DNA of 38,472 nucleotides from Methanobacteriota archaeon (GTDB lineage Archaea > JAADCQ01 > Methanopyri > Methanopyrales > Methanopyraceae). Positions 1,185 to 38,423 of the stretch are shown piece by piece. Positions within the stretch are counted from its first letter, which is position 1, and each line of letters starts with the position of its first letter. The stretch spans positions 1 through 38,472 of the forward strand of contig JAMOPY010000030.1 in NCBI GenBank assembly GCA_027064305.1. The letters run 5' to 3'. The position numbers were made by a program, and so were the translations under genes. Below the pieces are notes generated by a model. The model was not told where the DNA came from. It did no database searches and saw only the letters and a list, made by a program, of their open reading frames with translations.

Positions 1185-1388
1185 TTACTCCCCCTCCCCC
1201 CTCGGGGGAGGCCCGAACTTCTTGATCCACACCTTCTTTTTTAATCTCCTCCGATACTTACCGTACGGATCCTCCGGGGAGAATCGGGGCGGGTGGGGAA
1301 CCTCCACCTCGCCGCCGCAGTGCGGGCATCGGTCCCGCTGCAGGGTGTACTCGCCGCACTCCTTGCACCGTCGGAGCCGCTTGGGCAC
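1185..1388 (-). CDS. nop10: H/ACA RNP protein Nop10
   Basis: CKECGEYTL...CPHCGG zinc ribbon and PHPPRFSPEDPYGKYRR signature; GTG start 1388. Confidence 0.95.
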   Translation of the reverse strand: MPKRLRRCKECGEYTLQRDRCPHCGGEVEVPHPPRFSPEDPYGKYRRRLKKKVWIKKFGPPPRGEGE

Positions 1389-1392
1389 GCGG

Positions 1393-2199
1393 TCACCCCT
1401 CTTCGATCTCCCGGTGGAACTCGCCCTCCCCACCGTGCTCCTCCACGTACTCGATCGCCTCCCGCGCGGCCTCCCGAACCACCCGCTCCGCCGTCTTGTA
1501 GTCCGGCGCGTCCACCCGGATCCGGTACCGCGGCGCGCCGACGTACTGGACCTCCATCTTCACGTCCTCGTCCTCACCGTACCCCTCGATGCGCTGCAGC
1601 GCCTCCCGGATCACCTCCACCCCGTTCGGGGCCGGGCAGCTCAGGTCCACGTACGCCTCGATCTTCACCCGGCCCGGCTCGATGTTCTCGATCGCCAGCT
1701 CCGCCAGCTTCTCCGCCCACTCCTCCGGGATCCCCGCCTTCAGCAGCGGCTCCGCGCTCTGCTCCGAGGCCGCCCGCTCCAGCGCGTCGTACAGCGACCC
1801 GTACTCCTCGATCAGCCGGTACCCGGCCTCCTCGTACGCCTCGTCCAGGTCCTTCCCCAGCTCCTCCGCCGCCATCTCCAGCAGCTTCTCCGCCCGCTGC
1901 TCCCGCTTCCACTCCTTCAGCTTCTCCTTCCGCTGGTGGTCCGTGACCCGCCGCAGGGACAGGTTCACGTACTTCTTCTTCGGGTTGACCCGGATCACCT
2001 TCGCGACGACCTTCTGCCCCTCCTTCACGTGGTCCCGGATGTTCTTGACCCAGCCGCTCGCCACCTCCGAGATGTGGATGTAGCCCTCCACCTCCGGGTA
2101 CTCGTCCAGCGTGACGAAGGCCCCGTGATCCTCCACCCGCTCCACCGTGGCCATCACGACCTCGCCTTCCTCCGGCAGCTCCGAGAGCTTCCGGGGCAT
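1393..2199 (-). CDS. eif2a: Translation initiation factor aIF-2 alpha
   Basis: S1 domain LPEEGEVV...HISEVASGWVKNIRDHVKEGQ; C-terminal YVGAPRYRI. Confidence 0.97.
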   Translation of the reverse strand: MPRKLSELPEEGEVVMATVERVEDHGAFVTLDEYPEVEGYIHISEVASGWVKNIRDHVKEGQKVVAKVIRVNPKKKYVNLSLRRVTDHQRKEKLKEWKREQRAEKLLEMAAEELGKDLDEAYEEAGYRLIEEYGSLYDALERAASEQSAEPLLKAGIPEEWAEKLAELAIENIEPGRVKIEAYVDLSCPAPNGVEVIREALQRIEGYGEDEDVKMEVQYVGAPRYRIRVDAPDYKTAERVVREAAREAIEYVEEHGGEGEFHREIEEG

Positions 2200-11027: not shown

Positions 11028-11102
11028 TGGGCCCGCCGGGATTTGAACCCGGGACCACGGGGTTATGAGCCCCGCGCTCTGACCGGACTGAGCTGCGGGC
11101 CC
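11028..11102 (-). tRNA. tRNA-Ile2 (CAU anticodon), genomic C8
   Basis: Cloverleaf GGGCCCG-CA-GCTC..GAGC-G-CGGGG-CT CAT AA-CCCCG-TGGTC-CCGGG TTCAAAT CCCGG-CGGGCCC-A; GGGCCCG acceptor typical of archaeal Ile2 rather than Met; CCA not fully encoded (CCG). Confidence 0.9.
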
Positions 11103-13897: not shown

Positions 13898-14015
13898 GCC
13901 GGGGCAGCTTAGCCTGGTAGAGCGCGGGGCTCATAGGGCCCGATGACCCGGGGCGAGGGGGACTCGGGCCTGGGATACCCCGAGGTCCCGGGTTCAAATC
14001 CCGGCCCCGGCACCA
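13898..14015 (+). tRNA. Elongator tRNA-Met (CAU) with 41-nt intron (13936-13976), genomic C8, CCA encoded
   Basis: Acceptor GCCGGGG/CCCCGGC-A-CCA; anticodon CAT 13932-34; canonical 37/38 bulge-helix-bulge: CTCA/TGGG helix, bulges TAG and ATA, outer helix GGCCCGA/TCGGGCC. Confidence 0.95.
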
Positions 14016-35566: not shown

Positions 35567-36841
35567 TCACGTGCCCTCCTTCCAGCTCCTCAGGTACTCC
35601 CGCTGCTCCGGCGTGAGCTCCTCGAGCTCGACGCCCATCGACTCGAGCTTCAGCTCGGCGACCCGCCGGTCGATCTCGGACGGGACCTCGTACACGCCCG
35701 GCTCCATCGACTCGCCCTCCCGCGCCAGCCGCTCGACGGAGAGGGCCTGCAGGGCGAAGCTGATGTCCATGATCTCGATCGGGTGCCCCTCGCCCGCCGC
35801 GAGGTTCACGAGCCGGCCCTCCGCCACGAGGTAGATCCGGCGCCCGTCCGGCATGCGGTACTCCGTGACCAGCCCCCCGCGCCGCTCGACCTTCTCCTCG
35901 CAATGCTCCTCCAGGTACTCCTTGTCGATCTCCACGTCGAAGTGGCCGGCGTTGGCGAGGATGGCCCCGTCCTTCATCCGCTCGATGTGCTCGCCGCGGA
36001 TCACGTCCCGGTTGCCGGTCGCCGTGATGAAGATGTCCCCCTCCTCCGCCGCCCGGTCCATCGGCATGACCCGGAACCCGTCGAACACGGCCTCCATCGC
36101 CCGGATCGGGTCCACCTCCACCACGATCACGTCCGCGCCCAGACCCCGCGCCCGCCGCGCGATGCCCCGACCGCACCAGCCGTACCCGGCGACCACGACC
36201 GTCTTCCCCGCGATCAGCACGTTCGTCGCCCGCATCAGCCCGTCCAGCGCGCTCTGCCCCGTCCCGTACCGGTTGTCCATGAGGTACTTCGTCCGCGCGT
36301 CGTTCACCGCGATCACCGGGAACCTGAGCTTCCCGTCCCGGTGCATGGCCCGGAGCCGCTGCACGCCGGTCGTCGTCTCCTCCGTCGCCCCGATGATCCG
36401 ATCGGCCAGCTCCGGGTGCTCCAGGTGCACCCGGGTGATGCAGTCCGCCCCGTCGTCCACGAGGATATCCGGCTCGTGGCTCAGCACCCGGTCGATGTTC
36501 TCGTAGTACTCCTCCCGCGTCTCCCCGCGCCACGCGTACACGTGCACCCCCTCCTCCACCAGCGCCGCCGCCACCTCGTCCTTCGTCGACAGCGGGTTGC
36601 ACCCCGTGATCGCCACCTCCGCGCCGCCCGCCATCAGCGTCTCCACGAGAACCGCCGTCTTCGCCTCCAGGTGCAGGGTCATCCCCACCGTGAGCCCCTC
36701 CAGCGGCCGCTCCTCCTCGAAGCGCTCCCGGATGATCCGCAGCACGGGCATGTGCTCGCGGGCCCACTCGATCATGTCCCGACCCTTCGGCGCCAGGGAC
36801 GGGTCCCGGATCGCGTACTCACCCTCCTTCACCACGACCAC
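35567..36841 (-). CDS. ahcY: Adenosylhomocysteinase (S-adenosyl/S-inosylhomocysteine hydrolase)
   Basis: [56 protein letters not shown]. Confidence 0.96.
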
Positions 36842-36853
36842 GCGCTCCCGCCC

Positions 36854-36867
36854 CCGAGAAATTATAG
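36854..36867 (+). promoter_or_regulatory. BRE plus TATA box for the H/ACA RNA
   Basis: CCGAGAA-ATTATAG; the TATA starts 25 nt upstream of G36886, the first base of hairpin 1. Confidence 0.6.
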
Positions 36868-36885
36868 CCGGGACCGGGCCCGGCC

Positions 36886-37028
36886 GACCGGGGCCCCCGG
36901 CGGGGCGAGGCGGTATTCACCGCGCGATGAACCCCGCCGTCACGATCCCGGTACACCCCGCCCCGTCACGCCCGGGAGCAGGCCGCGACGCCGTCCGTGA
37001 CCGGGCGACCTGGCCGCCGGGTACATAT
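36886..37028 (+). ncRNA. Two-hairpin box H/ACA pseudouridylation guide RNA with K-turns
   Basis: HP1: ACCGGG/CCCGGT lower stem, pocket, GGCGGGG/CCCCGCC upper stem, GA/GAT-GA K-turn, ACA 36953. HP2: CCCG/CGGG, pocket, CGCCCGG/CCGGGCG, GA/CGT-GA K-turn, ACA 37023, then a T-rich tail. Confidence 0.85.
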
Positions 37029-37055
37029 TTCCTTGCGCACGACGGGGGACGCGGG

Positions 37056-38423
37056 ATGTCCCCTCGACCCACGACCCTCCTCGTCCCACTACTGACCGGA
37101 CTCCTCCTGGGAACGACCGGGGCGACCGCGCTGGAACAGGGCCACCTGAGGGAGACCTACACCGTCACGCTCAACGGCGTCACCTACCGGGTACCCGTCG
37201 ACTACTACGTCTGGAAGAACGGGGACGGACACTTCGTCTGGCTCTCCCTGGGCGTCCATCCGCTCGAGCATCAGGCCCACGAGTGCATGTTCCACGCCGC
37301 CCAGTGGTTCGTGCGGTACTCCGGCGAGTTCCGGGGCACGCTCATCGTCTCCTGGATCCGAATCCCCAAGGAGTACTACACGACCGGCGACCGACAGCGG
37401 GACTACCAGGTCTCCCGCGACCTGGGACAGCTGACGTTCTACCACCACGTGCTGCGCTACGTCCTGCACCCCGAGGAGCTGGGCCGGAAGGTGGGCGTGA
37501 GGCTCACCGGGCGCCCGGAACTCTTCCTCGACGTGCACGCCCACCGACCCTGGTGGGGCGCCTCGGAGTTCATCCTCATCCCGGCCGGCCCCGTCCACGG
37601 GAACGACAACCCGACCTCCTACCGCAAGGCCCTGCAGATCTGCGAGGCGCTGGCCGGCGTGATCGGCGCCAGCGTGGACCCGAACCAGAAGGGTACCTCA
37701 CCTCCCTGGGTCACCGCGCCCGTGGCCCGGGCCGGCATCCCGGCCGCCACCTTCGAGAACGGGTACTACTACCTCGAGCGCGAGATGCCGGCCAACTACG
37801 ACAACTACCGCACGGAGCTCGACAAGGCCCTGCTCGAGGCCCTGTACCTGTACGCGCTCGAGGGCGGCCGCGTGTCGCCCACGCCCGAGGGCTACCGGAA
37901 GCTCGCCCACTGGTACGAGGTCGCGGCCGGGGTCTGGGACCGAACGGCCCGATACCTGGAGCTCGCGGCCGACCAACACCCGGACTACGCGGACGTCCTC
38001 CGGCACCTGTCCGAGCTGGCGCGCCGCATCTCCTCCCTGCTCCGACGGATGTCGGACGAGTGCCGGCAGGTGGCGGCGCTGCTGGAGGCCGGTAACCGCC
38101 GGGAGGCGGCCCGGCTGGTCGACGACCGACTGCTCCCGGAGTACAACGAGGTCAGGCGGCTCTATGCCGAGTACATCGAAGGGTACCGGCGGATCCCGGT
38201 CCGCATCGTCGACGTCGTCCAGCCCCCGAGTAAAACCGAGCGTCCGTGGTGGGAGTGGGTCCTGGAGCAACCGTGGTTCCCGGTGGCGGCCACCGTGGGG
38301 GTGGGCGTGGGCGCCCTCGCGGTCGTGAAACTCGTAAAGACCGGCCCGATACCGATCCTGGGGCTGATAGCTTGCGCGGTGCCGCCGCTGCGGCGATCGT
38401 TGCGCTCCTGCTCGCGGCGCTGA
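37056..38423 (+). CDS. Secreted M14/AstE-like zinc-hydrolase domain protein with PIP-CTERM-like anchor
   Basis: Signal peptide; GVHPLE (HxxE), LDVH, ATFE; helical region; C-terminal hydrophobic segments and GPIPILGLIACAV followed by an Arg-rich tail. Confidence 0.7.
   Translation: MSPRPTTLLVPLLTGLLLGTTGATALEQGHLRETYTVTLNGVTYRVPVDYYVWKNGDGHFVWLSLGVHPLEHQAHECMFHAAQWFVRYSGEFRGTLIVSWIRIPKEYYTTGDRQRDYQVSRDLGQLTFYHHVLRYVLHPEELGRKVGVRLTGRPELFLDVHAHRPWWGASEFILIPAGPVHGNDNPTSYRKALQICEALAGVIGASVDPNQKGTSPPWVTAPVARAGIPAATFENGYYYLEREMPANYDNYRTELDKALLEALYLYALEGGRVSPTPEGYRKLAHWYEVAAGVWDRTARYLELAADQHPDYADVLRHLSELARRISSLLRRMSDECRQVAALLEAGNRREAARLVDDRLLPEYNEVRRLYAEYIEGYRRIPVRIVDVVQPPSKTERPWWEWVLEQPWFPVAATVGVGVGALAVVKLVKTGPIPILGLIACAVPPLRRSLRSCSRR

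Follow-up and report, generated by a model that had tools for sequence, protein, structure and literature searches.

A probable two-hairpin box H/ACA guide RNA gene beside ahcY in a Methanopyrus-type genome, with predicted targets in 16S and 23S rRNA

A stretch of archaeal DNA of 38,472 nt (the window; GenBank contig JAMOPY010000030.1 of assembly GCA_027064305.1, family Methanopyraceae) was analysed for a non-coding RNA gene next to ahcY. Positions 36887–37025 of the plus strand very probably hold the gene of a ∼140-nt archaeal small RNA (sRNA) of the box H/ACA class, whose two hairpins would guide the pseudouridylation of one uridine in 16S rRNA and one in 23S rRNA. The gene lies in a gap of 214 nt (36842–37055), which is bounded by the start of ahcY at 36841 (minus strand) and by the ATG of a downstream gene at 37056. 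The window is contig C30 of the genome under study (G000), an assembly of 1.21 Mb in 50 contigs with 70% G+C and a completeness of 89%. Five other genomes of the genus (G001–G005) served for comparison; G001 and G002 are single-contig assemblies, the latter of 1,694,969 bp.

Architecture of the two hairpins

The original prediction, read from the sequence without database searches, had placed two tandem hairpins with pockets, kink-turns (K-turns) and ACA boxes at 36953 and 37023 in this gap, and these elements were found at those positions. Each hairpin (HP1 and HP2) has a lower stem (H1), an open pocket, an upper stem (H2) of 6–7 bp, a K-turn-like GA/GA module and an ACA box. The features, all on the plus strand, are as follows.

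36887–36955, plus strand: HP1 of the predicted H/ACA sRNA, with the pocket CCCCC / GUCAC(GA) and its ACA box at 36953–36955
36894–36898, plus strand: predicted 5' guide of HP1, CCCCC, complementary to the GGGGG that follows the target U-A in 23S rRNA; invariant in six of six genomes
36906–36931, plus strand: K-turn-like module and apical stem-loop of HP1, assigned from the sequence
36939–36943, plus strand: predicted 3' guide of HP1, GUCAC, complementary to the GUGAC that precedes the target U in 23S rRNA; kept in five of six genomes (GUCUC in G004)
36955–37025, plus strand: HP2, with an irregular lower stem, a pocket, the upper stem CGCCCGG/CCGGGCG, a K-turn-like module and its ACA box at 37023–37025
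36964–36967, plus strand: predicted 5' guide of HP2, CGUC, which would pair with GACG (16S 995–998); kept in five of six genomes (GGUC in G004)
37009–37015, plus strand: predicted 3' guide of HP2, CCUGGCC, which would pair with GGCCAGG (16S 986–992); invariant in six of six genomes

The lower stem of HP1 (36887–36893/36946–36952) consists of seven pairs, one of which is G.U, and the ACA box follows directly. Its pocket strands are 5 and 7 nt long (CCCCC at 36894–36898 on the 5' side and GUCACGA at 36939–36945 on the 3' side), and the upper stem (36899–36905/36932–36938) has seven pairs, all G-C, plus a C.A at the 3n-3b level. In the K-turn-like module, the C (3n) and the GA at 36907–36908 lie opposite the GA at 36929–36930 and the A (3b), with a 3-nt bulge (GAU, 36926–36928). 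The apical C-stem GGCGG/CCGC(G)C closes a 6-nt loop, UAUUCA, and requires a bulged G at 36924.

HP2 begins with the last A of the first ACA box. Its lower stem (36955–36961/37016–37022) forms six pairs and one C.C mismatch, with the ACA at 37023 directly after, and its pocket strands measure 7 and 8 nt (36962–36968 on the 5' side; ACCUGGCC at 37008–37015 on the 3' side). The upper stem (36969–36975/37001–37007) consists of six pairs and a paired level at 3n-3b; the A/A level beneath is unpaired. The GA at 36976–36977 stands opposite the GA at 36999–37000, with the 3-nt bulge CGU at 36996–36998; the apical stem is irregular and requires a bulged U and a bulged A. The overall plan of the original prediction thus stood, but its regularity did not: the stems above the K-turns are interrupted by bulges and the lower stem of HP2 is imperfect. 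From the GA/GA and bulge signature, a K-turn fold and L7Ae binding are predicted for both hairpins.

In both hairpins the first base of the 3' guide lies 14 nt before the ACA, as had been proposed, and 10 nt after the G of the GA on the bulged strand. The 14-nt spacing holds for both hairpins in all six genomes (15 nt when counted from the H2 base in HP2). The descriptor given for Pyrococcus H/ACA sRNAs (PMC2377435) has an H1 of at least 7 bp followed by an ANA/ACA box, a pocket of 5–11 nt per strand and an H2 of 5–6 bp, and places the ANA box 14–15 nt from the target U or the top of the pocket. The window element shares with it H1 and ACA (clearly in HP1, more weakly in HP2), the pocket size, the sequence signature of the K-turn, the ANA spacing and the bipartite complementarity to rRNA.

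Complementarity to rRNA

The pocket of HP2 matches the organism's own 16S rRNA (C40:11209–12725) exactly once, at GGCCAGG-U-U-GACG (GGCCAGGUUGACG), with the target U at position 993. The match comprises 7+4 Watson-Crick pairs; the next-best site in 16S and 23S rRNA scores 8.5, with G.U counted as half a pair. This target had been named in the original prediction and is literally present. Because the G000 assembly lacks the 23S rRNA, the HP1 target was sought in congeneric 23S rRNA, which was found in four of the five genomes. The sequence GUGAC-U-A-GGGGG (GUGACUAGGGGG) occurs exactly once in each of the four, so that the 23S target of the original prediction is borne out in the congeners, the genome's own 23S being unassembled. 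With the G005 23S, HP1 forms 5+5 pairs, and the next-best site scores 6.5. In a control with 3000 pairs of genomic segments, taken from the same genome with the lengths and spacing of the pockets, the HP2 score was reached by 12 pairs and the HP1 score by 46.

Alignment to the rRNA of E. coli K-12 places the 16S site around E. coli position ∼1020, in the variable region of helix 33, and the 23S site in domain IV, near E. coli ∼1761 (U1973 in the 23S of the nearest relative), ∼10 nt 5' of the conserved GACUGUUUA. The 16S target sequence is identical in all four 16S rRNAs found in the genus. The genes for 16S and 23S rRNA are widely separated in the single-contig congeners (784718 vs 850137 in G001; 516776 vs 585271 in G002).

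Archaeal H/ACA ribonucleoproteins (RNPs) carry L7Ae on the K-turn and Cbf5-Nop10-Gar1 on the lower stem, ACA box and pocket (PMC7991803, PMC2377435). By this mechanism one protein set would assemble on each hairpin of the window element, L7Ae at the K-turn and Cbf5 (with Nop10 and Gar1) at the lower stem, ACA and pocket. The pocket strands would pair with the rRNA sequences that flank an unpaired U-N and place the U in the active site of Cbf5, which would isomerise it to pseudouridine. HP2 would in this way guide 16S U993 (numbering of the genome under study) and HP1 the U of GUGAC-U-A-GGGGG in 23S rRNA. The genes for Cbf5, Nop10, Gar1 and L7Ae are present in the genome, with matches above the Pfam cut-offs (Gar1 on C35, TruB_N on C8, L7Ae on C9 and Nop10 on C30). 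The nop10 gene was correctly placed in the window by the original prediction, ∼35 kb from the sRNA.

1233–1400, minus strand: nop10, core protein of the H/ACA RNP (PF04135, 84.5 bits; Pfam match 1233–1379)

Conservation within the genus

Each of the five congeners carries an ortholog of the sRNA, flanked as here by ahcY and the same downstream gene. Four were found by DNA search, at 96, 91, 79 and 79% identity; the G002 copy (C1:356809–356953, minus strand) is 79% identical over 134 nt. The copy in G004 is strongly diverged; BLAST-type searches of that genome missed it with either query (the window sequence or the G001 copy), and it was located by synteny beside ahcY (L157:2822–2976, G004:C3). 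A DNA search of 35 other archaeal genomes gave nothing credible. A scan of metagenomes for the 17-mer that is invariant in HP2 returned at least 117 loci; among the matches listed, none carried the rest of the element and two contained a chance GTCACG, and no extra orthologs were obtained.

Across the six genomes both ACA boxes, CCCCC and CCUGGCC are invariant, and GUCAC and CGUC are each kept in five. The GA/GA signature is found in HP1 of all six genomes and in HP2 of five. Above the K-turn of HP1, the apical stem has been swapped for other complementary stems in G001, G002 and G004. Folding under constraint retained the architecture of HP1 in the five closer copies; G001 and G002 pair its lower stem in a shifted register, and the length of this stem in the orthologs is 5–7 pairs. 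In G004 the lower stem of both hairpins stops 2 nt before the ACA that lies at the 14-nt distance.

In the alignment of the five closer sequences, the proposed structure pairs 87.9% of the cells, vs 39–51% with slid partners, and double-sided changes are absent. When G004 is included, 85.1% of the cells are paired (vs 36–52% with slid partners) and eight compensatory pair changes appear; the shuffled mean is 3.0, and 0 of 500 shuffles reach eight. Half of these changes lie in the upper stem of HP1, where GGCGGGG/CCCCGCC is replaced by GAGCCGG/CCGGCUC in G004. The stem covariation that the original prediction expected in related genomes was thus observed, with all eight changes in G004.

A role of the apical loop of HP1 (36909–36925) as an antisense to 16S rRNA was considered and rejected. 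Within the organism's own 16S, 13 nt (GCGCGGUGAAUAC, ∼1346–1360) are complementary to the stem-loop. Exact matches to the loop (query 54–71), 16–18 nt long, occur in seven further archaeal genomes; of the match loci, five were scanned with Rfam (seven loci, including two unrelated ones), and all five lie inside 16S rRNA. The loop is, however, not conserved in the genus, as it differs in G005 and G003 and is replaced in G001, G002 and G004; the complementarity is likely coincidental.

Descriptor and covariance searches

A descriptor was built from the Pyrococcus rules set out in PMC2377435 (H1 directly before ACA, pocket strands of 4–11 nt, H2 of 5–7 pairs, GA/GA with a 3-nt bulge, and 14–15 nt from H2 to ACA). 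It detected nine sites on both strands of the 1.2-Mb genome, compared with one in the reversed genome and 1–6 (mean 2.6) in ten dinucleotide shuffles. Two of the nine are HP1 and HP2, adjacent on one strand. Four of the remaining seven show 9.5–11 pair-equivalents to the organism's own 16S rRNA, at U8, U12, U572 and U930, and are alike in geometry:

C9:11967–12037, minus strand: single hairpin with a GAUGAG-type K-turn, predicted target 16S U12
C23:37256–37326, minus strand: single hairpin with a GAUGAG-type K-turn, predicted target 16S U8
C24:17730–17800, minus strand: single hairpin with a GAUGAG-type K-turn, predicted target 16S U930
C31:8668–8732, plus strand: single hairpin with a GAUGAG-type K-turn, predicted target 16S U572

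These four hairpins are probably other pseudouridylation guides of the genome, to judge from their structure and complementarity, and the weaker matches at C39:5265–5335, C45:4222–4302 and C50:23607–23675 may be due to chance. By position and sequence context, the sites near the 5' end of the 16S rRNA and at ∼930 resemble the Pyrococcus 16S sites 27 (15 in P. furiosus numbering) and 922 (910) listed in PMC2377435.

A covariance model of the six copies found a second two-hairpin H/ACA-like RNA in G002, at 32 bits and with different pockets:

L167:1501–1647 (G002:C1:1500956–1501102), plus strand: second two-hairpin RNA, detected with the covariance model

Among 115 other archaeal genomes the model gave weak matches in three (G081, G034 and G027; E 0.04–0.36), with ACA boxes, GA...UGA K-turn signatures, AT-rich flanks and other guide sequences. 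They were considered as distant orthologs of HP2 and rejected: their guides differ, and the target position is a C in the 16S rRNA of G081 and G034 (the G027 assembly is without 16S). The matches outside the genus are an architectural resemblance and not orthology.

Flanking sequences and neighbouring genes

The gap contains candidate signals on both sides of the sRNA; they and the two neighbouring genes are as follows:

35567–36841, minus strand: ahcY (S-adenosylhomocysteine hydrolase), the divergent upstream neighbour (Pfam AdoHcyase 9e-66, AdoHcyase_NAD 6e-54)
36856–36867, plus strand: AT-rich box GAGAAATTATAG, resembling a B recognition element (BRE) and TATA box in sequence; the sole AT-rich stretch upstream
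37026–37034, plus strand: U-rich tail UAUUUCCUU after the second ACA box, read from the letters alone
37056–38423, plus strand: downstream open reading frame of 455 amino acids with a hydrophobic N-terminus and without a Pfam family; the syntenic neighbour in G004 is similar

The GAGAAATTATAG box lies 20–31 nt before 36887 and ∼23 nt upstream of the divergent ahcY start codon (36841), and a related motif, CCCCCGA(G)AAA, is retained in the orthologs. It is the presumed promoter of the sRNA, whose transcription would start near 36887 and end after 37025. The purine-rich flank 5' of the box on the plus strand is presumably BRE-like and would favour the direction of the sRNA; the box may also, or instead, serve ahcY. 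Of the 'own promoter' initially claimed, the AT-rich box is present, and its function remains a presumption from position and composition. The T-rich tail of the same claim is present as UAUUUCCUU, which may be a weak terminator or a TATA-like box of the downstream gene, ∼27 nt before the ATG at 37056. The segment ACAUAUUU (37023–37034), which runs on from the sRNA, likewise lies ∼27 nt before this ATG. Both neighbouring genes may be leaderless and have promoter elements in common with the ends of the sRNA. A scan for sigma-70 promoters and terminators, a type of scan that does not apply to archaea, gave one terminator-like match on the minus strand (36885–36866).

The gap was also considered as coding sequence. 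Long open frames run across it, but the orthologs differ by indels whose lengths are not multiples of three, and a coding sequence is therefore disfavoured. In addition, the hydrophobic N-terminus of the downstream protein starts at the ATG at 37056 and, in G004, at the equivalent ATG.

The G002 ortholog (L006:1496–1639) is spanned by contigs from four size-fractionated RNA runs of one 2013 study, which establishes its presence in an RNA library only. Elsewhere in the window are two tRNA genes, at 11028–11102 (minus strand) and 13898–14012 (plus strand); the second is 115 nt long, which leaves room for an intron.

Alternative explanations

Several of the observations below weigh against a guide sRNA with two working hairpins. 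The best surviving alternative, which we consider improbable, is that the H/ACA sRNA is real but that one hairpin is the active guide, the other being a structural or assembly partner or guiding a different site. The lower stem of HP2 is irregular and its conservation poor, with 36% of the cells paired at the inner two pairs; the 3' strand of this stem is invariant and the 5' strand drifts, and in G003, which forms three pairs only, the stem is nearly lost. In G004 the second sheared pair of the HP2 K-turn (2b-2n) has changed from A.G to C.A. The guide of HP1 is short, with only 5+5 pairs and a chance rate of ∼1.5%, and its target was checked in congeners, the genome's own 23S being absent from the assembly. 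In G004 the 3' guide of HP1, GUCUC, produces a U.U mismatch to the 23S site; the best alternative fit of this copy is U1301 of the 23S, with 6+5 pairs including two G.U. Furthermore, upper stems of 5–6 bp were functional and those of 7 bp inactive in the Pyrococcus tests reported in PMC2377435, vs seven pairs in HP1 and six plus a paired 3b-3n level in HP2. The base of the HP1 upper stem is mismatched in G001 (G.G, G.U) and G002 (G.G, A.C), which leaves 5–6 pairs, and given these mismatches at the bottom levels the effective stem may be 5–6 bp. Upper stems of the same lengths occur in the other candidate guides of the genome. Against a single active hairpin, the genus has retained both pockets and both ACA boxes, each pocket has a unique best match in rRNA, and the spacing is identical in HP1 and HP2.

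We regard it as very improbable that the region is not a guide RNA at all, i.e. that a divergent promoter or leader, for example the structured 5' leader of the downstream gene, carries G+C-rich hairpins that resemble H/ACA motifs by chance. Stems form easily at 70% G+C. The minimum free energy (MFE) z-score was −0.41 for the plus strand and +0.22 for the minus strand, so that free-energy folding, proposed as a check in the original prediction, did no better than on shuffles and did not single out the region; because the DNA has 70% G+C, thermodynamic folding is uninformative here. Unconstrained RNAalifold on the orthologs recovered the upper stem of HP1 only. The descriptor yields ∼2.6 chance matches per genome, but at this rate, i.e. 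per 2.4 Mb, two adjacent matches on the same strand are very unlikely. Rfam, the other proposed check, found no family at gathering score in the whole window except two tRNA matches; on 36700–37200 the sole match at E≤10 was RF02807, with 13.9 bits vs a gathering score of 42 (E 7.8), so that no archaeal H/ACA family was reached. The AT-rich box could be the promoter of ahcY. The contigs from the RNA runs do not delimit a small RNA, since they extend to 1189/1240 on one side and to 1792–1800 on the other (flanks of ∼250 and ∼155 nt), cover the neighbouring genes, and show no ends, strand or level. All eight compensatory changes come from G004 and none is seen without it; because they fall in one sequence, the covariation amounts to one lineage's worth of evidence. 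What speaks for guide function is that both pockets match rRNA in the U-N format (at chance rates of 12/3000 and 46/3000), that conservation across the region is highest in the guide elements and ACA boxes, and that the stems covary.

A box C/D (2'-O-methylation) guide, or an L7Ae-binding RNA of another kind, has a negligible probability: CGAUGAA (36924–36930) is similar to a C box and L7Ae K-turns are common to both guide classes (PMC7991803), but there is no CUGA D box within 36880–37030, the GA pairs are placed as in H/ACA RNAs (inside hairpins, above open pockets and with ACA at 14 nt), and no C/D family was matched in Rfam.

Both other archaeal 16S rRNAs compared (G081 and G034) have a C where U993 stands here, so that this site is not widely conserved and we consider it lineage-specific. 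A more far-reaching interpretation combines two Methanopyrus-specific, undescribed pseudouridines (in helix 33 of 16S and domain IV of 23S rRNA), guide evolution in G004, and one AT-rich box that drives both the sRNA and ahcY, a gene of the methyl cycle. All of these together are doubtful. With regard to G004, the architecture of HP1 would have been kept by the four compensatory stem changes, with the 3' guide moving off the 23S site and possibly onto U1301.

Relation to known H/ACA sRNAs

Six H/ACA box sRNAs have been reported from RNA sequencing of Methanopyrus kandleri, the organism of G002, and are listed in Supplementary Table S1 of that study (Su, Tripp and Randau 2013, PMC3695527). They belong to the same genus and RNA class as the window element, and an ortholog of it may already be among them. 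The original description of the element as unannotated consequently stands for Rfam but is to be qualified for M. kandleri. The main text passages of PMC3695527 on these sRNAs name no pseudouridine target for any of them, and full-text literature searches retrieved no other description of Methanopyrus H/ACA guides.

Close structural parallels are Pab35 and Pab105 of Pyrococcus (Pf6 and Pf3; Muller et al. 2008, PMC2377435), which, as here, combine tandem H/ACA motifs in one sRNA. Each motif has a lower stem, a pocket, an upper stem, a K-turn or K-loop and an ANA box, placed at 14–15 nt from the target U; of the two guide strands, the 3' one is the stronger. At the sequence level no similarity was detected (no Rfam family at gathering score), and the upper stems in the window are one level longer than the functional 5–6 bp of Pyrococcus. 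The predicted target sites differ from the 15 sites active in vitro that Table 1 of PMC2377435 gives for P. abyssi; a predicted 16S-995 site of P. abyssi, maybe in the same region as U993, is described there as unmodified.

The sR-h45 RNA of Haloferax volcanii (PMC7075261) is likewise a two-stem-loop archaeal H/ACA guide acting on rRNA, a likeness by description; it guides 23S positions 1940, 1942 and 2605 (PMC5029457), unlike the sites predicted here. RF02807 (Pyrobaculum sRNA 209, H/ACA-like) aligns with the upper stem, the GA...UGA K-turn and the apical stem of HP2 (36969–37007), and with a score far below gathering (13.9 vs 42 bits) this is an architectural resemblance and not membership.

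Overall, the element belongs to a well-understood RNA class and is ordinary within it; its identification is a sound annotation rather than a discovery. The annotation of the genome under study and of its five congeners gains a non-coding gene that was missing. No Rfam model detects the element, and the alignment and structure from the six genomes could seed one. The descriptor pointed to at least four further likely guides in the genome, and two predicted modification sites, 16S U993 and the U of GUGAC-U-A-GGGGG in 23S rRNA, are named that can be tested.

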